Source of the DNA: Omnitrophica bacterium RIFCSPHIGHO2_02_FULL_46_20
GTDB lineage: Bacteria; Omnitrophota; Gorgyraeia; 2-01-FULL-45-10
Direction of reading: 5' to 3'
DNA length: 46,646 nucleotides
NCBI GenBank assembly: GCA_001804065.1
Contig: MHFG01000082.1
Location: forward strand, 1-46,646
The notes under the pieces are model-generated. The model saw only the letters and a program-made list of their open reading frames with translations, ran no database searches and had not been told where the DNA came from. Within the stretch, counting starts at the first letter, position 1; the number at the start of each line of letters is the position of its first letter. The translations under genes and the position numbers were made by a program. Positions 4,217 to 45,322 of the stretch are shown here, one piece after another.

Positions 4217-5326
4217 ATGAGGATCGTGATAGCGTGCGGCGGTTCGGGCGGGCACATATTTCCCGCTGTGGCGCTTGCGCAAGGAATTAAGACGAAGGAT
4301 AAAAACATCGACATAATATTTGTCGGGAGCGATAAGGCGCTTGACAGGAGAATATTCGAAAAAGAAGGTTTCCGATATTCGATGCTATCGGCGAACAAGT
4401 TACCGTATAATCCGTCATTAGGTACATTTGTATTTTTTATAAAATTATCCCTCGATCTTTTAAAGTCGCTCTGTATATTAATAAAATCCAGGCCCAATGT
4501 AGTTGTAGGATTCGGCGGTTACGTAGCGGCTCCCGTAATACTAGCCGCCTGTATATTATGTATCCCGAGGGTAATTCATGAGCAGAACGTTGTACCTGGA
4601 AGGGCTAATGCGAAGTTATTCACCCTTGCCGACAGAATAGCGATAAGTTTTGAGGATACGAAGAGGTACCTCGGTCGCTATGCTTATAAAGCGGTTTTCA
4701 CGGGAAACCCTATAAGGGCCGCGCTGCTAAAAGACGACAGAACGGGCAATATGAAAAAATTGGGCCTCGATGCCGATAAATTCACCATACTTGTCATAGG
4801 AGGGAGTCAGGGGGCCCACAATCTGAATAAAGCGTTTCTGCAAGCGTTATCACAGCTCGACGCTAATACGCGGTCAAGATTACAGGTCATACATATTACA
4901 GGGACAACGGATTATGTATGGGCAAGCGCGGCATATGAAGAATTGGCGCTGGAGTGCCGCGTTTATTCGTTTGTGGATAGGATAGAAGAAGTGTATAGCG
5001 TGGCAGATCTTGTGGTGACGAGGTCTGGCGCATCAGCGATATTTGAAATAGCATACTTCGGGAAACCGATGGTCTTGATACCATATCCTTTTGCCATGAG
5101 CCACCAGGTTGAGAATGCGCGCATCTTCTCCGAAAAAGGCGCGGCAATACAAATAGATGAAAACGACATGTCGCCTGATTTGATAAGAAACTCTCTTATG
5201 GATCTATTAAAAGATAGAAAAAGGTTGAACGAAATGGCAGAATCGGCAAAACGCCTTAGCGTGCCGGATTCATCATATACTTTAGCGGAAGAAATCTTGC
5301 GCCTTGGCAGGGGGCGGCGCGCATGA
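4217..5326 (+). CDS. murG: UDP-GlcNAc:lipid I GlcNAc transferase MurG (GT28)
   Basis: N-terminal G-loop CGGSGGHIFPAVALA. dcw position. Confidence 0.9.
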   Translation: MRIVIACGGSGGHIFPAVALAQGIKTKDKNIDIIFVGSDKALDRRIFEKEGFRYSMLSANKLPYNPSLGTFVFFIKLSLDLLKSLCILIKSRPNVVVGFGGYVAAPVILAACILCIPRVIHEQNVVPGRANAKLFTLADRIAISFEDTKRYLGRYAYKAVFTGNPIRAALLKDDRTGNMKKLGLDADKFTILVIGGSQGAHNLNKAFLQALSQLDANTRSRLQVIHITGTTDYVWASAAYEELALECRVYSFVDRIEEVYSVADLVVTRSGASAIFEIAYFGKPMVLIPYPFAMSHQVENARIFSEKGAAIQIDENDMSPDLIRNSLMDLLKDRKRLNEMAESAKRLSVPDSSYTLAEEILRLGRGRRA

Positions 5327-6696
5327 TACTTGAGAAGAAGAATATACACTTTGTTGGTGTTGGCGGCATAGGGATGAGCGGCCTTGCCTTCATATTATTG
5401 AAGATGGGTTATAATGTTTCCGGATCAGACCTTAAATCGAATAATCTCACTGAAAAGTTGGAAAAAATAGGAGGCAAGATATCCGTAGGGCATAATACCC
5501 GCCACCTACCGCCCGAAGCAGAGGTTCTGGTATATTCATCGTCCATAAATAACGCAAACCCGGAAATCATTGAGGCGCGCAAACGAAATATCACAATAGT
5601 CAAAAGGGCCCAAGTTTTGGGCGAGATATTGAATAAGAAAAAGGGGATAGCTGTAACCGGGACACATGGCAAAACCACCACTACTTCGCTCATCTCTGTT
5701 ATGCTTGAGGATTGTTTTCTTGATCCAACGGTGATAATAGGGGGCGAGGTAGATCTGTTCGGCGGTAACGCAAAGTCAGGTTCTGGTGAATACGTGGTAG
5801 CCGAGGCGGATGAGAGCGACGGCTCTTTTCTCTATTTAAAACCTCTCTACTCTGTCATAATGAATATCGAGATAGAGCATGTGGATTATTATAAAACTCT
5901 CGATGACGCCATAGATTCATATTCGGCCTTCGCGAATAACTTAAAGAAAACGGGAACACTATTTTATAATTGCGAGGACGAAAACATAAAAAAAATGCTC
6001 ATCCGTTTTAACGGTAAGGGAGAAAGTTTCGGTTTTTCTAGACAGGCAGATATATGCCCTTATGACATCAAGCTGAACGGATTCCGTTCGTCATTCCAGT
6101 GCGTCTACAAAAACGAGATTATTGGAAGAGTATTTCTTAAGGTTCCGGGAAGGTATAATATCCTGAACAGCCTCGCGGCAATTCTCGTCGGATTTAAAAT
6201 AGGGCTTACATTTGAAAATATAACGCGTTCAATAGCGGATTTCAGCGGTACGAAGCGGCGTTTCCATCTAATGGCGGATGTCGACGGAGTCATGCTTATT
6301 GATGACTATGCCCACCACCCGACGGAGATACGCGCTGTTCTTGATGCCTGCCGCAACTGGAAGAACCGGAGGCTGATAGTGGTATTCCAGCCGCACAGGT
6401 ATACGCGGATGAAATTTATGGCAGATGAATTCGGCGGATGCTTTAAGGGCGCGGATAAACTCATATTAACAGACATATACGCGGCGGGCGAGGATCCGAT
6501 AGAGGGAGTCTCTGTAAAAAATATTTATGACAAAGTCAAAAAACACGGTATTAATGACGTTACGATGATGAATAAAGAAGGTGTCGCCGAATATGTAATG
6601 GCATTAAAGAAGCGCGGTGACATGATATTGGTGCTGGGCGCAGGCGACATAAAAGAGGTCACAAATGAATTATCCGAAAGGCTTAATAAAAGGTAA
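5323..6696 (+). CDS. murC: UDP-MurNAc--L-alanine ligase MurC
   Basis: GVGGIGMSGLA, GTHGKTTTTS P-loop, DDYAHHPTE. ATGA overlap with murG. Confidence 0.9.
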   Translation: MILEKKNIHFVGVGGIGMSGLAFILLKMGYNVSGSDLKSNNLTEKLEKIGGKISVGHNTRHLPPEAEVLVYSSSINNANPEIIEARKRNITIVKRAQVLGEILNKKKGIAVTGTHGKTTTTSLISVMLEDCFLDPTVIIGGEVDLFGGNAKSGSGEYVVAEADESDGSFLYLKPLYSVIMNIEIEHVDYYKTLDDAIDSYSAFANNLKKTGTLFYNCEDENIKKMLIRFNGKGESFGFSRQADICPYDIKLNGFRSSFQCVYKNEIIGRVFLKVPGRYNILNSLAAILVGFKIGLTFENITRSIADFSGTKRRFHLMADVDGVMLIDDYAHHPTEIRAVLDACRNWKNRRLIVVFQPHRYTRMKFMADEFGGCFKGADKLILTDIYAAGEDPIEGVSVKNIYDKVKKHGINDVTMMNKEGVAEYVMALKKRGDMILVLGAGDIKEVTNELSERLNKR

Positions 6697-7564
6697 TGTG
6701 AAAGCGGGAGAACCCCTTGAGCGCCACACATCTTTTAAGATAGGGGGGCCAGCAGCGCTCTGGGCGGAGCCGAAAGATATAGCAGAACTTAAAAAGATAA
6801 TTAAATTTTCCCGAAAAAACAGAATTCGGACTTTTATTGTAGGCGGAGGAACCAACATTCTAGCAAGCGACAGGGGCTTTAAAGGCATAGTGCTCCATCT
6901 CGGTTCGCCATTCTTTAAAAACATAACGATGCGCGGTACCACGGTAATGGTAGGCGCAGGATACAGCGTTCCGGCGTTAGTGAGATTATGTTGTGATAAG
7001 GGCTTGAGCGGATTAGAGTCGCTTATCGGTATCCCCGGCACTGTAGGGGGGGCTGTATATATGAATGCCGGTGGCTGGTACAGCCCGTTATACAAAAATA
7101 TCGGAGATTATATTATATCGTTAAAGGTTATGGACTACGAAGGTAATATAAAGATATTAAAGAGAGGCGATATTAAACTCGGGTATCGCCGCTCTAATCT
7201 TTCTCCCTATATAATATTAGCGGCAGCGCTCGGGCTCGGCAGGGAAGACAGTTCAGCCTTGACTTCCAGGTGCTCAAAATTTTTAAAGATGAAAAGGGAG
7301 AAACAGGTGCTCGACATGCCTAGCGCCGGTTGCGTATTCAAGAATCCGGATAATTCTCAGTTTACTACGGGACAGATGATAGATATGCTGGGTTTAAAAG
7401 GGGCGAGGATGGGTGGAGCAGAAATTTCGCGTAGGCACGCAAATTTTATAATAAATAAAAAAGGAGCGAGCTGTAATGACGTTTTAAAACTCATCGGCCT
7501 TATAAGTAAAAAGGTAATGAAGAATTACAAGATTCCTCTGGAGTTGGAGATCAAGATTATATGA
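6665..7564 (+). CDS. murB: UDP-N-acetylenolpyruvoylglucosamine reductase MurB. An alternative in-frame GTG start at 6698 lies just after the murC stop.
   Basis: FAD-binding domain motifs TSFKIGGPA and GGGTNIL. dcw position. Confidence 0.9.
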   Translation: MNYPKGLIKGNVKAGEPLERHTSFKIGGPAALWAEPKDIAELKKIIKFSRKNRIRTFIVGGGTNILASDRGFKGIVLHLGSPFFKNITMRGTTVMVGAGYSVPALVRLCCDKGLSGLESLIGIPGTVGGAVYMNAGGWYSPLYKNIGDYIISLKVMDYEGNIKILKRGDIKLGYRRSNLSPYIILAAALGLGREDSSALTSRCSKFLKMKREKQVLDMPSAGCVFKNPDNSQFTTGQMIDMLGLKGARMGGAEISRRHANFIINKKGASCNDVLKLIGLISKKVMKNYKIPLELEIKII

Positions 7565-8613
7565 TAGGGAAAGAGAGGAAGGGGCCAAGTCCGCCTGCCC
7601 TGCGCCATATCGGCGCAGGGCCTGACGGCTCGCCTCTCGGCGTCCGCCTCGGCGAGCCAAAGGTGAGACGGGAAGCCGAGGGCAGGCATGGGTCAAGATT
7701 CGGCAAGATAGGCGTGTTAGCGGGTGGGCCGTCGAATGAGCGCGGTATAAGCCTGCGTTCGGGCGCTGCCGTTTATAATGCCCTATTAAGCGAAGGGCTT
7801 GACGCGATATTCCTTCGCGTGAAAAACGATATCCGCAACGTCATCGCGGCAAATAAAATAGATGTCGCATTCATAGCTCTCCATGGAAGATACGGCGAGG
7901 ATGGAACGGTTCAGCAAGCTCTTGAAGACGCTGATATTCCGTATACTGGTTCTGGCGTAGAAGCATCGCGGCTCGCGTTCGATAAGGTCGCTTCCAAAGA
8001 GGCTTTTATAAAAAATAAGATCCCTGTTCCGAAATATATTGTGTTTGAGAAAGAAAAGTTTGACGTAAACGAAGCGGATAAAATAGGTTTCCCGCTTGTT
8101 GTCAAACCTCAATCGGAAGGCTCAAGCATAGGGCTTTCTATAGTTAAAGAAAAAAAATTTTTACGAACGGCAATAGATAAAACCTTTCAATACGGCGAAA
8201 GAAGCGTGCTGGAGGAATATGTTGCAGGAAGAGAGCTTACCGTGGGCATCCTGGACGATAAGTCTCTGCCGGTCATAGAGATAGTTACGAAAAATAATGT
8301 CTATGATTATGAGGCTAAATATGAAGATTCGACTACGCGGTATCTGGTGCCTGCCCCGATAGATAAAGAAGCGTATAAAGAAGCTGGGCGCTTGGGGAGC
8401 CTATCTCATAGCGCTTTGGGCTGCAGATCGTTTTCAAGAGTCGACATGATCATGGATAATTATGGAAAAATATTCGTATTAGAGGTTAATACGATACCGG
8501 GGATGACAGGGCGCAGCCTGCTGCCGAAAGCGGCGGCTGCTATTGGTTTGTGTTTCAGAGAGCTTTGTGTTAAAATCCTTGAGCACTCTTTATTAAAGGC
8601 GGGAAAACTATAA
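7561..8613 (+). CDS. ddl: D-alanine--D-alanine ligase. It has an about 48-aa Gly/Pro/Arg-rich N-terminal extension encoded by an inserted GC-rich element. An in-frame GTG at 7663 is an alternative start.
   Basis: ATP-grasp Ddl motifs IGVLAGGPSNERGISLRSG, HGRYGEDG and EVNTIPGMT. The ATG at 7561 overlaps the murB stop (ATGA). Confidence 0.85.
   Translation: MIGKERKGPSPPALRHIGAGPDGSPLGVRLGEPKVRREAEGRHGSRFGKIGVLAGGPSNERGISLRSGAAVYNALLSEGLDAIFLRVKNDIRNVIAANKIDVAFIALHGRYGEDGTVQQALEDADIPYTGSGVEASRLAFDKVASKEAFIKNKIPVPKYIVFEKEKFDVNEADKIGFPLVVKPQSEGSSIGLSIVKEKKFLRTAIDKTFQYGERSVLEEYVAGRELTVGILDDKSLPVIEIVTKNNVYDYEAKYEDSTTRYLVPAPIDKEAYKEAGRLGSLSHSALGCRSFSRVDMIMDNYGKIFVLEVNTIPGMTGRSLLPKAAAAIGLCFRELCVKILEHSLLKAGKL
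7569..7712 (+). mobile_element. Candidate MITE/RPE-like insertion: 144 bp, GC-rich, multi-hairpin, in-frame and stop-free inside the 5' end of ddl
   Basis: Direct repeat GATAGG at 7563-7568 and 7707-7712, exactly 144 nt (48 codons) apart. Deleting one repeat plus the intervening DNA gives ATGATAGGCGTGTTAGCGGGT = MIGVLAGG, a canonical Ddl N-terminus. Hairpins: 7597-7606/7612-7621 (10 bp perfect), GGCTCGCC/GGCGAGCC, and GCCTGCCCT/AGGGCAGGC. Confidence 0.45.
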
Positions 8614-11077: not shown

Positions 11078-11162
11078 CTTGATAGCAAAGGAAATTATAT
11101 TCGGTTACCCATATTAGATCCTTCCCCCGCCAAAGCGGGGTCAGGATCAAGAAAAATCTGCC
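11078..11162 (-). repeat. Repeat family 2, copy A (inverted relative to copy B at 34707-34829)
   Basis: The reverse complement reads GGCAGATTTTTCTTGATCCTGACCCCGC-tttg-GCGGGGGAAGGATCTAAT..TATAATTTCCTTTGCTATCAAG. It matches copy B with single mismatches in each conserved block. It contains the 32-nt hairpin 11117-11148. Confidence 0.7.
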
Positions 11163-11198
11163 AAAAGCCTCCCGCAGGGCAGATTTTCTTGACTTTTC
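11147..11198 (+). terminator. Probable intrinsic (bidirectional-type) terminator after the ftsA-PilZ unit
   Basis: Stem TCAAGAAAAATCTGCC / GGCAGATTTTCTTGA (1-nt bulge) with a 15-nt loop, followed by the T-rich run TTTCTTGACTTTTC. Confidence 0.5.
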
Positions 11199-13134: not shown

Positions 13135-14001
13135 TTGAGCAAAGTAGGTATAATCGGCGGAAGCGGTTTTTATCATATTGACGGCATAAAGGACGTCAAG
13201 AAGGTTAGGATTTCTACGCCATTCGGTGATCCTTCAGGCGAATTCACGACGGGTGTTCTAGAGGGTAAAGAGGTCGTATTTTTAGCGCGGCACGATCAAG
13301 GGCACAGGCTGCTTCCCAGCGAGATAAATTATCGCGCTAATATATACGGGATGAAAAAGTTGGGCGTCGAACATATTATATCTGTATCGGCATGCGGAAG
13401 TTTAAAAGAGGAATTGAAGCCTTTAGACATAGTTATACCATTGCAATTCGTGGATAGGACAAATTACGGCCGCAAGATGACATTCTTCGGCAACGGTATA
13501 GTGGCGCACATTCAGTTTGCCGAGCCTGTATGCCACAATCTATCCAAAACGCTTTACGAGGCAGGAGTCAAGGCAGGCGCGGCCATGCATCTGGGCGGCA
13601 CATATATAAACATGGAAGGGCCTCAGTTCTCGACCAAGGCGGAATCTTATCTTTACAGGGCATGGGGAATGGATATAATCGGCATGACGAATCTTGCTGA
13701 GGCGAAGCTTTCGAGAGAGGCAGAGATATGTTACGCGACACTGGCCTGCATCACCGATTATGACTGCTGGCATATGGACCAGGCGGTTGAGTCTGTGTCT
13801 ATTGAGATGATTATACAAAATTTGTGCAAGAATGTGGATACGTCGAAAAGAATAGTGGCGACGGCATTGCCGAAACTCAGGACGGGAAGAACTTGCGTAT
13901 GCTCTTTCGCGCTCAAAGATTCTATCGTAACGAGAAAGGAAGCAATCCCGTATAAGACAAAGAAGGATTTGGAATTAATAATTGGAAAATACATTAAATA
14001 A
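13135..14001 (+). CDS. mtnP: S-methyl-5'-thioadenosine phosphorylase (PNP/MTAP family), TTG start
   Basis: GIIGGSGFY, VVFLARHDQGHRLLPSEINYRANI, GPQFSTKAES, MTNLAEAKLSREAE. Confidence 0.8.
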   Translation: MSKVGIIGGSGFYHIDGIKDVKKVRISTPFGDPSGEFTTGVLEGKEVVFLARHDQGHRLLPSEINYRANIYGMKKLGVEHIISVSACGSLKEELKPLDIVIPLQFVDRTNYGRKMTFFGNGIVAHIQFAEPVCHNLSKTLYEAGVKAGAAMHLGGTYINMEGPQFSTKAESYLYRAWGMDIIGMTNLAEAKLSREAEICYATLACITDYDCWHMDQAVESVSIEMIIQNLCKNVDTSKRIVATALPKLRTGRTCVCSFALKDSIVTRKEAIPYKTKKDLELIIGKYIK

Positions 14002-14002
14002 A

Positions 14003-16726
14003 ATGAATTATAAGCATACGTTAAATTTACCTAAGACAGACTTTCCAATGAAGGCAGATCTTCCGAATCGAGAGCCCAAGATCTTAAAACAGTGGCAGGA
14101 TATGGATCTTTACGGGAAGATTCGCAATATTCGTAAAGGCAAAAATAAATTCATCCTGCACGACGGCCCCCCATATGCAAACGGGAATATCCATATGGGC
14201 CACGCCCTGAATAAGATACTGAAGGACATAGTTATTCGTTATAAGACGATGCGCGGACTTGATTCGCCTTATGTGCCCGGATGGGACTGCCACGGCCTTC
14301 CGGTAGAACATCAACTATTCAAGGAATTAAAGATAACGAAACATGACATAGATCAGGTGAAGTTCAGGAGGAAGGCGTATGACTACGCGATGAAGTATGT
14401 AGCCATACAGAGAGATCAATTCAAGCGCTTAGGTATATTTGGCGAATGGGAGAACCCGTATCTTACGCTTTCAAAAGATTACGAGGCAGAGATTGTCAGG
14501 TCGTTCGGCAGGCTGGTTGAAAAAGGTTATATATATAAGGATTTGAAGCCGGTTAACTGGTGCTCGACGTGCGAGACTGCCTTAGCAGAGGCTGAGATCG
14601 AATACGAGGAGAAGAGTTCGCCCTCGATTTATGTCGCATTTAAATATAAAGACGACGCATCGTTTGTGATCTGGACAACAACGCCGTGGACCTTGCTTGC
14701 CAATGTCGCGATAGCGGTACATCCTGAAGAGGAGTACGTATTTGCGAAAGGGCCTGGCAATGAAACCTATATAATAGCGAAGGGCCTTATTGAAGCCGCG
14801 ATGAAAATGATAGGGATAAAAGAATATAAAATAACAAAGACAGCCAAGGGTAAGGAATTAGAAGGTTTAGAAGCAGCCCATCCATTCATTGATAGAAAAT
14901 CGAAGGTTGTTTTAGCCGAATATGTTTCCATGAAAGACGGAACCGGCTGCGTTCATACGGCCCCCGGACATGGACAAGAAGACTATATCACGGGCAAACG
15001 TTACGGCCTTCCTGCCGTAATGCCAGTCGATTCAAAAGGAAAATTTGACAATACCTGCGGTGAATTTAGCGGGATGGACGTTATTAACGCAAACAAGCCG
15101 ATACTGGAAAAGTTAAAATCGCAAGGCGCTTTATTACACGCCGAAGAGGTCGCGCATTCCTATCCGCATTGCTGGCGATGTAAAAGGCCTATAATCTTTA
15201 GAGCTACAGATCAATACTTCTTAAAGGTAGATCATAAGAATTTACGAAAAAATATGTTAAAGGCGATCTCTTCCGACATAAAATGGATTCCTAAAGAAGG
15301 GAAGTCTAGGATATCGACTATGGTCGAGAATCGGCCTGACTGGTGTCTGTCAAGGCAGAGATACTGGGGTGTTCCGATAATAGCTTTCTATTGCAAAGAC
15401 TGTAAAAAAGTTCTTCTGGATCAAAAAGTCATAGAACATGTGGCCGGTTTTGTTGAAAAGGAAGGCGCGGATGTTTGGTTTGCGAAGAAAGAAGAGGAAC
15501 TGATGCCGGAGGGCGCCAAATGCAAAAAATGCGGCGGCATACAATTCCAAAAGGAGACGGATATCATAGACGTATGGTTTGATTCAGGCGTGAGCCATCA
15601 GGCCGTATTAAAGAAAAATAAAGATTTGGATTATCCGTGTGAATTATACTTGGAAGGCTCTGATCAGCACAGAGGCTGGTTCCAGTCAGCGCTTATAACA
15701 GCTATGGGGATAGACGAGAAAGCGCCGTATAAAAATGTCCTCACTCACGGTTTCGTAGTTGACGGCGAAGGCAAGAAGATGTCCAAGTCGCTCGGAAATG
15801 TCATAACGCCCGAAGAGGTCATGAAGAAATACGGGGCAGATATACTGAGGCTCTGGGTTGCGTCGAGCGATTATTCGGAAGATGTAAGGATCTCAAATGA
15901 GATCTTAACGCGGCTCGCTGACGCCTACAAAAAAGTCAGGAATACCTGCAAGTATCTTTTGAGCAACCTCTACGATTTTGATCATGTGAAGGATGAAGTA
16001 GATTACAAGAAGATGCTTGAGATCGACAGGTGGATATTGAGTGAACTTGCCCGCCTCATAAATAATTGTACGCAGAATTATGATTCTTATTCATTCCATA
16101 AAATCTACAGAGACGTATACAATTTCTGTGTTAATGAAGTCTCTTCGATATATCTGGACGTCTCAAAGGACAGGATGTATACATATGCTAAAGACTCTTT
16201 AGAGCGCAGGTCCGGCCAGACCGCGATGTTAGAGGTCTTGCAGAATCTTTTGAAGATAATAGCGCCTTTACTTGCGATAACTACGGATGAGGTCTGGGGT
16301 TATCTTTCAATAAAAGATAAATCGGAATCCGTGCATCTTGAATCTTGGCCGAATGAAAAAGAACATGATAAATGGATCGATAAAGATTTGCAAGCCACGT
16401 GGACTCGGCTTGTAGCTACAAGAGAGGAAGTATTAAAGAAACTCGAGGAGAAGAGGCAGGGCGGGATCATAGGTTCGAGTCTTGAAGCGGCCGTGACGCT
16501 GGTTACGAATGATGCGGCCCTAAAAAAGATATTGCAGGAGAAGAAAGATTTTTTAAAATATCTATTCATAGTTTCACAAGTCAAATTAAAAGAGGGTGAG
16601 CCGGCTATATTAATAGAAAAGGCTAAGGGCAATAAGTGTTCGAGATGCTGGAATTACGGCGAGGCGGTCGGAGCTTATAAAGATCATCCGTCCCTCTGTG
16701 AGCGATGCGTACAGAACATCAAATAG
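14003..16726 (+). CDS. ileS: Isoleucyl-tRNA synthetase (type 1, C-terminal zinc finger). The start is moved to the ATG at 14003, 1 nt after the mtnP stop.
   Basis: HIGH-type motif PYANGNIHMGHALN, KMSKSLGN, C-terminal CSRCWNY..CERC. Confidence 0.95.
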   Translation: MNYKHTLNLPKTDFPMKADLPNREPKILKQWQDMDLYGKIRNIRKGKNKFILHDGPPYANGNIHMGHALNKILKDIVIRYKTMRGLDSPYVPGWDCHGLPVEHQLFKELKITKHDIDQVKFRRKAYDYAMKYVAIQRDQFKRLGIFGEWENPYLTLSKDYEAEIVRSFGRLVEKGYIYKDLKPVNWCSTCETALAEAEIEYEEKSSPSIYVAFKYKDDASFVIWTTTPWTLLANVAIAVHPEEEYVFAKGPGNETYIIAKGLIEAAMKMIGIKEYKITKTAKGKELEGLEAAHPFIDRKSKVVLAEYVSMKDGTGCVHTAPGHGQEDYITGKRYGLPAVMPVDSKGKFDNTCGEFSGMDVINANKPILEKLKSQGALLHAEEVAHSYPHCWRCKRPIIFRATDQYFLKVDHKNLRKNMLKAISSDIKWIPKEGKSRISTMVENRPDWCLSRQRYWGVPIIAFYCKDCKKVLLDQKVIEHVAGFVEKEGADVWFAKKEEELMPEGAKCKKCGGIQFQKETDIIDVWFDSGVSHQAVLKKNKDLDYPCELYLEGSDQHRGWFQSALITAMGIDEKAPYKNVLTHGFVVDGEGKKMSKSLGNVITPEEVMKKYGADILRLWVASSDYSEDVRISNEILTRLADAYKKVRNTCKYLLSNLYDFDHVKDEVDYKKMLEIDRWILSELARLINNCTQNYDSYSFHKIYRDVYNFCVNEVSSIYLDVSKDRMYTYAKDSLERRSGQTAMLEVLQNLLKIIAPLLAITTDEVWGYLSIKDKSESVHLESWPNEKEHDKWIDKDLQATWTRLVATREEVLKKLEEKRQGGIIGSSLEAAVTLVTNDAALKKILQEKKDFLKYLFIVSQVKLKEGEPAILIEKAKGNKCSRCWNYGEAVGAYKDHPSLCERCVQNIK

Positions 16727-34692: not shown

Positions 34693-34722
34693 AATATGCC
34701 CCGCAGGGCAGATTTTACTTGA
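34685..34722 (+). terminator. Probable intrinsic terminator of the hldA-kdsBADC unit. Its 5' arm includes the kdsC stop codon.
   Basis: TCAAGTAAAATATGCCC-cgca-GGGCAGATTTTACTTGA: 17-bp stem with 1 mismatch. The GC core TGCCC/GGGCA is flanked by AAAA and TTTT. Confidence 0.5.

Positions 34723-43500: not shown

Positions 43501-45322
<1,822 letters not shown>

Follow-up and report, generated by a model that had tools for sequence, protein, structure and literature searches.

Why does ddl, an essential cell-wall gene, open with a GC-rich, hairpin-dense segment in Omnitrophica bacterium RIFCSPHIGHO2_02_FULL_46_20, what kind of DNA is this segment, and is it translated? We addressed these questions in a stretch of 46,646 nucleotides (nt) of contig MHFG01000082.1 (assembly GCA_001804065.1), hereafter the window, to which all positions given without a contig label refer. 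An original prediction, made from the letters of this stretch and a list of its open reading frames (ORFs), had proposed that a palindromic repeat resembling the Rickettsia palindromic elements (RPEs) is inserted in frame at the start of ddl. Our analysis supports this core idea. The segment is an insertion, and it is likely to represent a non-autonomous, selfish palindromic repeat of an Omnitrophota-specific mosaic family, which behaves like RPEs, is tolerated by its host gene and is probably translated from ATG 7561.

Boundaries and anatomy of the insertion in ddl

The elementary features of the locus are as originally described. The murB stop codon and the ddl ATG at 7561 overlap as ATGA, the ddl frame is open over 350 amino acids (aa), and the GC content is 62-69% at 7550-7750 compared with about 43% in the surroundings. 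A perfect 10-bp hairpin is present, as are the inverted repeats GGCTCGCC/GGCGAGCC and CCTCGGC/GCCGAGG (inner arms at 7627-7634/7651-7658 and 7647-7653/7675-7681) and an outer pair of arms. The expectation that the extension is lineage-specific also held, with the Ddl matches of 40 of 40 related genomes aligning only from about residue 41-50.

By contrast, the proposed size and bounds of the element did not survive comparison with alleles that lack it. Length variants were collected from protein clusters at ≥90% identity and then aligned as DNA. In relatives that are 90-91% identical, empty alleles read ATGAT followed directly by TAGGTCAAGATTCGG, which encodes MIRSRFGRIG; in one of them (L047), TTATATGAT is joined to TAGGTCAAGATTCGG. 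Measured against these alleles, the insertion spans 123 nt or 41 codons rather than the 144 nt or 48 codons that separate two copies of GATAGG. Both copies occur at 7563-7568 and 7707-7712 as claimed, but they are neither the bounds of the element nor a target duplication: given that empty-site alleles show SRFGKI (7693-7710) to be native Ddl, the pair is a coincidence of two native stretches. Since positions 7689-7712 are native in the empty alleles, the predicted ancestral N-terminus MIGVLAGG is likewise wrong. Ddl starts called in relatives are MIRSRFGRIGVLAGG (P0003, 91% identical, empty site), MTGSRFGKIGVLAGG and MIGARFGRVGVLAGG, whereas the peptide predicted from ATG 7561 in the window begins with MIGKERKGPSPP and passes through the element as MIGKERKGPSPPALR.

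Within these boundaries, no clear counterpart elsewhere exists for the leftmost 15-23 nt of the insertion (7566-7588), which are followed by a 102-nt repeat unit that comprises an outer or carrier inverted repeat, a 27-nt hairpin module and a long-palindrome core (Table 1). At least three palindromic modules are nested in the element as a mosaic; they are separable, each being found alone elsewhere, a property that was not visible in the window itself. The 27-nt hairpin module is missing from a strain that is 99.6% identical, and the resulting 341-aa Ddl alleles lack the residues ALRHIGAGP. Just left of the 102-nt unit, the window and this otherwise 99.6% identical strain (L101) differ by three substitutions within 8 nt at 7574-7584 (GAGAGGAAGGGG versus GAGTGGATGCGG, or KERKGP versus KEWMRP), a clustering suggestive of heightened local change, or of conversion, beside the palindrome.

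Partial and empty alleles of the insertion are found at three genes, namely ddl, murF and thiH, and all seven allelic length differences are multiples of three (Table 1). At ddl, the empty, 39-nt, 96-nt and 123-nt forms occur among relatives that are 90-99.6% identical, while one genome (sample SRR22388142) carries the carrier-only form at both ddl and murF. The hairpin has the same geometry at two independent loci for which empty alleles are known: in ddl, 22 nt lie between two copies of GCCTG where strain L101 has a single GCCTG, and in thiH, 22 nt lie between two copies of GGCAG where L120 has a single GGCAG. Because all other Omnitrophota ThiH proteins lack the nine residues in question, the thiH hairpin is a gain and not a deletion elsewhere. 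Its loop is reversed between two filled orthologous alleles (ATGTC versus GATAT; C88:1451-1471 of the same genome versus L121) with the stems kept, which is compatible with insertion in both orientations as well as with an inversion inside the palindrome.

Recurrence of the modules within the genome and across the phylum

The predicted fold energy of the ddl region is unremarkable compared with dinucleotide shuffles (z = -1.7), so that recurrence, and not structure alone, carries the argument. A search of the whole genome by BLAST and nhmmer identified further copies, a check suggested along with the original prediction, one inside murF and a shorter one in the aroA-mreB spacer. The two long copies, in ddl and murF, are exactly 102 nt each with 73-75% GC, and the unit has a predicted folding energy of -59 kcal/mol. 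Their codon phases differ, the ddl copy being read in phase 1 and the murF copy in phase 0. All six frames of the murF copy are free of stop codons, a result reached by 3% of composition-matched shuffles; the ddl copy has four open frames and one TGA in each of two unused sense frames, stops having accumulated in unused frames only. Contig L101, from the 99.6-99.9% identical strain, connects the end of contig C7 with the window's first positions and thereby places the two copies about 8.2 kb from each other in a single operon, with murF upstream. MurF alleles without the insert read GPRAQ followed directly by EKIIIQV (P0260, P0265-P0267), which corresponds at the DNA level to AAGGGCTCAAG joined to AAAAAATC in L100, and a more distant murF (L053) confirms that the left flank of the insert is native.

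Individual modules are more widespread than the composite. Pattern searches detected the hairpin at five, the B-module at four and the carrier at 19 distinct sites of the genome, compared with none in shuffled sequence; the higher figure of 27 pattern matches counts overlapping and both-strand matches. The carrier inverted repeat has the form CCTGCC(TGCC)/GGCAGG(CAGG), and as a perfect 20-nt palindrome, CCTGCCTGCCGGCAGGCAGG, it stands alone at nine genome loci. Many carrier-like sites sit within clusters of other repeats. The 22-nt hairpin follows the consensus GCCCTG(YR)CC-loop-GG(YR)CAGGGC in the ddl, murF and C45 copies and is found alone inside thiH (C88:1441-1481) and in the genome of another family member (L014). 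A short form of the core that lacks the inner 30 nt occurs in the C45 copy and, in frame, in a 238-aa ORF on contig C26, where it reads GSPLGEAEG. The core is near-invariant between genomes, with only its three apical bases varying freely. As pair counting gave no significant covariation, the palindrome of the core is a property intrinsic to its conserved sequence rather than one proven by covariation.

Several separate observations concern these modules. In the C45 copy, the loop is reversed relative to the neighbouring module. The 20-nt palindrome CCTGCCTGCCGGCAGGCAGG also forms the centre of larger composite repeats (C8:3058, C28:10672, C29:7516, C31:27460 and 29669, C74:12256) with the layout GTCATTGCGAG...CGAAGCAATCT...AGATTG-palindrome-CTTCGCTCGCC...GCTCGCAATGAC, which make up a second, more abundant palindromic repeat family in the same genome. 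About 360 nt upstream of the lone 22-nt hairpin in L014, positions 919-1133 (G035:C58, about 13938-14152) match the Rfam group I intron model with 58 bits against a gathering score of 50. In L016 (1440-1550; G037:C79), an apparent 5′ untranslated region before a cinA-like gene contains the inner 30-nt module; a sigma-70-like TTGCAA-17-TATAAT is followed there by a 9-bp hairpin and then by the hammerhead-like words CTGACGAG...CGAAAC, which gave neither a hammerhead nor any other Rfam match.

The family is restricted to Omnitrophota. Element matches were detected in 16 of 401 genomes of the phylum, in many families of a single class, with G375 (at least 19 BLAST matches) and G351 (six) being rich in copies; the copies outside the genome studied here number in the dozens. 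Among approximately 185,000 species genomes scanned, the exact 35-nt core pattern occurs only in three Candidatus Omnitrophota metagenome-assembled genomes; it was also detected in 10 JGI metagenome contigs. Copies in G375, G351 and metagenomes carry the terminal inverted repeats CCTGCCTGCC/GGCAGGCAGG. No element copy among eight loci matched an Rfam family at E≤1, and we found no description of such an element for this phylum in the literature.

Our census of BLAST and nhmmer matches in the genome sample, which relies on ORF reading rather than curated annotation and detects intragenic copies only where an ORF spans them, comprises eight robust in-frame intragenic copies (including ddl and murF), about 17 intergenic copies and three ambiguous ones. 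The intragenic copies use three different frames and both orientations. The prediction that such copies would be in frame and free of stops proved correct for murF, a radical-SAM gene, a pyrK-like gene, aroA and others, and the thiH and C26 insertions add two module-level intragenic cases from the genome studied here. One candidate, the 'intragenic' copy in L113, was downgraded because the upstream part of its ORF consists of other repeats.

Table 1. Positions of the ddl insertion and its parts, further copies, alleles and neighbouring genes
Feature	Position	Strand or orientation	Remarks
Entire insertion, 123 nt or 41 codons compared with the empty allele	7566..7688	+	Three- and four-way DNA alignments with L047 (empty), L048 (39-nt) and L101 (96-nt)
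Purine-rich left segment, AGGGAAAGAGAGGAAGGGGCCAA	7566..7588	+	Absent from empty allele; last ~10 nt alone resemble the murF left flank
102-nt repeat unit, 34 codons	7589..7690	+	Ungapped 92/102 identity to murF copy, C7:10430-10531
Outer (carrier) inverted repeat, left arm, GCCTGCCCT	7593..7601	+	Pairs with 7679-7687
Outer inverted repeat, right arm, AGGGCAGGC	7679..7687	+	
27-nt hairpin module: 22 nt CCCTGCGCCATATCGGCGCAGG plus second GCCTG (first at 7593-7597)	7598..7624	+	Stem 7597-7606/7612-7621, loop ATATC
Long-palindrome core, GCTCGCCTC.CGGCGTCCGCCTCGGCGAGCC-NNN-GGCGAGACGGGAAGCCGAGGGC	7628..7686	+	~90% or more conserved across Omnitrophota families
Hypervariable 3-nt apex of core palindrome	7659..7661	+	AAA here; AAG, TTC, GAA, ATC, GGA in other copies
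In-frame GTG	7663..7665	+	ddl start in NCBI annotation (316 aa, P0242); no Shine-Dalgarno-like sequence upstream
Native Ddl N-terminal codons (..G SRFGKIG)	7689..7712	+	Conserved in relatives without the element; outside the insertion
ddl ORF, 350 aa	7561..8613	+	Read from the ATG common to all alleles
murB	6665..7564	+	TGA stop 7562-7564 overlaps ddl ATG (ATGA); from ORF list
murC	5323-6696		In the 3′ part of the dcw cluster carried by the window
murF copy	C7:10421-10539 (102-nt unit C7:10430-10531)		In frame inside murF
Shorter copy	C45:14414-14489		aroA-mreB spacer
Radical-SAM enzyme, 362 aa	G375	sense	Reads ...SPLGVRLGEPSARREADG..., frame as in ddl
AroA, 470 aa	G375	antisense	Reads ...SPSASRLAEGSPRRTPRGEP...
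PyrK-like flavoprotein, 290 aa	G351	antisense	
Coiled-coil protein	L112	sense	
Two giant ORFs	L058, L013	sense	
ddl alleles relative to the empty site			0; +39 (both termini joined, ACTGCC to GGCAGG); +96 (without the hairpin module); +123 nt
murF alleles relative to the empty site			0; +27 (carrier only, CCTGCCTGCC-AA-CAGGCAG...); +108 nt
thiH alleles relative to the empty site			0; +27 nt

Translation, mobilisation and alternative explanations

Is the element translated? In ddl, translation probably runs through it from ATG 7561, as argued by allelic differences that are without exception divisible by three; each of the three length variants of ddl stays in frame. A GGAG lies 11 nt upstream of ATG 7561 (read by eye; the automated scan reported only another GGAG, 17 nt upstream), and in the empty and 39-nt alleles the shared ATG is the only possible start. 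In murF, thiH, aroA and the pyrK-like and radical-SAM genes, the modules sit between conserved domains and must therefore be translated for those proteins to be made. An AlphaFold2 model of Ddl, based on an alignment of 50 sequences, scores below 50 in the predicted local distance difference test throughout residues 1-45 and shows the Ddl fold with confidence from position 50 onwards, so that the insert is predicted to form a disordered, floppy N-terminal tail. In the MurF model, for which the alignment is shallow, the insert falls within a low-confidence stretch at residues 41-113.

Taken together, these data would be explained as follows. The insertion would have entered ddl at its fifth base, bringing a 102-nt unit composed of an outer inverted repeat (GCCTGCC.../...GGCAGGC), a 22-nt hairpin in a 5-nt direct repeat and a core of about 54 nt. 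Having no coding capacity of its own, the element would behave as a non-autonomous selfish repeat, comparable to MITEs (miniature transposable elements with inverted repeats), repetitive extragenic palindromes (REPs) and RPEs, and would land both between and inside genes. Inside genes, selection would act as a filter, so that only copies with a length divisible by three and without stops in the host frame would persist, in tolerant loops or termini of essential proteins. Because DNA of 73% GC rarely contains stop codons, stop-free frames are common in it. In Ddl, about 41 residues rich in Gly, Pro, Arg and Ala would be added as a disordered tail before the first beta-strand; given that the enzyme tolerates the insert, no function is needed as an explanation. 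We infer that the element is neutral for its host and that it transposes actively.

Several findings weigh against this interpretation. The NCBI annotation starts ddl at GTG 7663, which remains a live rival start. The 102-nt unit has no clean target-site duplication, being flanked only by imperfect direct repeats of 9-10 nt (AGGGCTCAAG and GTGGGTCAGG in murF; AGGGGCCAAG and ATGGGTCAAG in ddl); their native member is the left one in murF and the right one in ddl, an asymmetry that may stem from a preferred target, from a duplication that has decayed or from microhomology. The modules could not be linked to any transposase or other mobiliser; none of 16 loci encoding transposases of the Y1 or RAYT (REP-associated tyrosine transposase) type, three in this genome and 13 in G375, G351, G427 and G222, has a module within 1.5 kb. 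The genome contains only two long copies, both in one operon, for which copying on a local scale or gene conversion could also account. Between families whose Ddl proteins share only about 45-55% identity, the core retains about 90% identity or more, which implies recent horizontal spread or functional constraint. Finally, pair counting over the core hairpin scored 98% of the cells as paired but yielded only one compensatory pair, and 64 of 500 shuffles performed as well, the variation being too small for significance in this test.

A link to RAYT/IS200 transposases was considered and rejected. The three Y1 homologues of this genome lie at C64:4892-5587, C3:22337-22972 and C37:1-339, the last being truncated. 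The two full-length proteins match the RAYT model best, with about 76 bits against a cutoff of 80 bits, but the three loci are flanked by unrelated repeats. Given that no module lies near any of the 16 loci, we did not file the element under REP/RAYT. The C64 gene has inverted copies of an unrelated motif on both sides (GGGACAGACACC and GGTGTCTGTCCC), which may be REP-like partners of this transposase.

If translation of ddl began inside or after the element (at GTG 7663), the 5′ two-thirds would be an untranslated murB-ddl spacer and about 10 element residues would be made. This agrees with the 316-aa proteins of the NCBI-called cluster, which begin with MRREAEG, and hairpins as strong as those of the 102-nt unit could impede ribosomes coming from ATG 7561. 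However, nothing comparable to a Shine-Dalgarno sequence precedes GTG 7663; the ATGA coupling is kept in every allele, and the empty and 39-nt alleles lack this GTG and must use the ATG. Moreover, the frame is kept in three length variants that lie upstream of or span 7663, and the mid-gene modules of murF, thiH, aroA and others must be translated where they stand. We therefore regard an internal start as unlikely. A functional cis-acting structure, such as a bound hairpin or an element of mRNA stability or translation rate that coordinates cell-envelope genes, with coding being incidental, is very unlikely in our judgement. It would account for the co-orientation with transcription of all three composite copies of this genome, which lie in murF, in ddl and just upstream of mreB, for the conservation of the core outside its three apical nucleotides, and for compensatory changes from C-G to U-A in two copies, affecting the core helix of L112 and the outer stem of G351_C9b/L088 (the latter identified by hand in the alignment). 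The copies of other genomes, by contrast, lie in unrelated genes (aroA, pyrK-like, radical SAM, giant ORFs) in both orientations, and near-identical strains lack all or some of the element. Neither a terminator nor a promoter was detected on its sense strand; GGGTCAAGATTCGG follows the element where an intrinsic terminator would have a run of T behind its GC-rich stem, and the absence of Rfam matches and of significant covariation adds to these objections.

The modules might also have spread without transposition, by replication slippage, template switching at quasi-palindromes and gene conversion, with the alleles arising from palindrome-driven deletion. Consistent with this, the differences of 27 nt and 81-84 nt have short direct repeats at their ends or are enclosed by the arms of inverted repeats, a classic substrate of slipped-strand deletion; only 8.2 kb separates the two long copies, which share an operon; orthologous thiH inserts carry the loop in opposite directions, an outcome to be expected if recombination acts inside an inverted repeat; and no transposase was found. 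Nevertheless, the same 22-nt hairpin and ~54-nt core occur with about 90% identity at unlinked loci in different families and genera, which requires copying from a shared source and not local creation, and the thiH insert is a true insertion whose nine residues are absent from all other Omnitrophota. Spread by these processes alone is, in our assessment, quite unlikely. GC-rich hairpin inserts within coding regions are bypassed in some mitochondria, and ribosomes might similarly hop over the element in the mRNA, as in T4 gene 60 or yeast mitochondrial 'byp' elements. If ribosomes bypassed the insert, its length need not be divisible by three nor its frame be free of stops. All seven length differences are nevertheless divisible by three, and no stop interrupts the host frame in any of the intragenic copies of a census limited to ORF-spanned copies. 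An assembly artefact is excluded by the 350-aa Ddl and 487-aa MurF proteins called in many independent ENA, JGI and NCBI assemblies, and we consider either explanation extremely improbable. A more far-reaching proposal starts from the tolerated selfish repeat that we favour and treats its modules as an active, self-nesting family of ultra-small mobile hairpins that move among Omnitrophota lineages and repeatedly add disordered segments to essential enzymes. The 22-nt unit would then make a 5-bp target duplication and prefer GCCTGCC-type palindromes, and the ~54-nt core would land in the centre of the 20-nt carrier. We put this forward as a conjecture that is itself rather unlikely.

Genomic setting, related systems and significance

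The genome comprises 1.31 Mb in 92 contigs with 45% GC, and the named relatives of its Ddl protein are Candidatus Omnitrophota. In the dcw cluster of the window, murC, murB and ddl are followed by ftsQ and ftsA, and the ATGA overlap between murB and ddl is also kept in the empty and partial alleles. Public ddl starts are in conflict, ENA and JGI callers using ATG 7561 (350 aa, a form called in several independent assemblies) and NCBI using GTG 7663 (316 aa). The element also gives rise to spurious ORFs of 70-101 aa on both strands (e.g., 7484-7696, minus strand). Another GC-rich island with an internal direct repeat (...CCCAGGGCTGTTTC(C/T)GCGCCGC..., twice) lies at 43885-44038 and is, by eye, unrelated to the ddl element. 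Hairpins at 11160-11190 (11173) and 34695-34720 (34702) were examined and rejected as family members: the octamer CGCAGGGC is all that they share with the ddl hairpin, and by eye they are terminator-like stems (atctgcc...ggcagat) after gene ends.

RPEs are dispersed repeats of about 100-150 nt without coding capacity of their own, often inserted in frame in housekeeping genes and translated as extra peptide segments (PMC10969869). The Omnitrophota element resembles them in having a palindromic 102-nt unit with nested inverted repeats and no gene of its own, in its position in frame within unrelated intact genes (ddl, murF, thiH, aroA, pyrK-like, radical SAM) with at least eight intragenic copies. 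RPE peptides lie at the protein surface and are compatible with the fold, which the predicted disorder of the Ddl insert may match. It differs from RPE-1 to RPE-10 in that its exact core is confined to Omnitrophota among the species genomes scanned, a distinction drawn by distribution and not by direct alignment to an RPE consensus. Further differences are its high GC content in a 45% GC genome, where only two long copies occur, its separable nested modules (20-nt carrier, 22-nt hairpin, ~54-nt core), and full, partial and empty alleles among near-identical strains.

With MITEs, the element shares small size, lack of coding capacity, multiple copies, presence/absence polymorphism and terminal inverted repeats (GCCTGCCCT/AGGGCAGGC in the window). 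Around the 22-nt module, a 5-nt sequence (GCCTG in ddl, GGCAG in thiH) is directly repeated where the empty site has one copy, whereas the 102-nt unit has only imperfect repeats of 9-10 nt. No parent insertion sequence with matching ends turned up, although no systematic search for insertion sequences with CCTGCC termini was made, and the modules of 20-27 nt are far below the typical size of a MITE. REPs and bacterial interspersed mosaic elements with their RAYTs are similar in that GC-rich palindromes of 20-40 nt form mosaic clusters in both orientations and that the genome encodes RAYT-like Y1 transposases. However, REPs are by definition confined to extragenic DNA and many copies here lie inside genes, no GTAG or CGTC tag is visible, the RAYT match is below the cutoff and the 16 Y1 loci are not flanked by these palindromes. 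Mobile GC clusters of yeast mitochondria are small hairpins with short target duplications, variable loops and merging palindromes (PMC4478555). Clusters such as GC42 resemble our modules as very small GC-rich hairpins in an AT-richer genome with a short target duplication; in view of their eukaryotic organelle host, unrelated sequence and mostly intergenic location, this is a working analogy and not membership. The element is a new family of the known RPE-like kind that belongs, by sequence and host, neither to the RPEs nor to the yeast GC clusters.

In-frame selfish DNA inside genes has been regarded as near-unique to Rickettsia and rare outside it; here it is found in an unrelated, uncultivated phylum whose members are free-living or epibiotic nanobacteria, and it affects the essential cell-wall genes ddl and murF. 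Empty, partial and full alleles still segregate among near-identical strains, so that the direction, rate and fitness cost of these changes are measurable from metagenomes. For genome annotation, such inserts mean overlong proteins and spurious 'hypothetical' ORFs from either strand, and the start of ddl is in dispute among gene callers. Both the nesting of the modules and the 5-nt repeat that flanks the 22-nt hairpin point to an as yet undescribed mechanism of mobilisation. If the modules were indeed self-nesting mobile hairpins, they would make up a class of mobile element new to bacteria, and nature would offer a system in which to study how proteins evolve through inserted palindromes.

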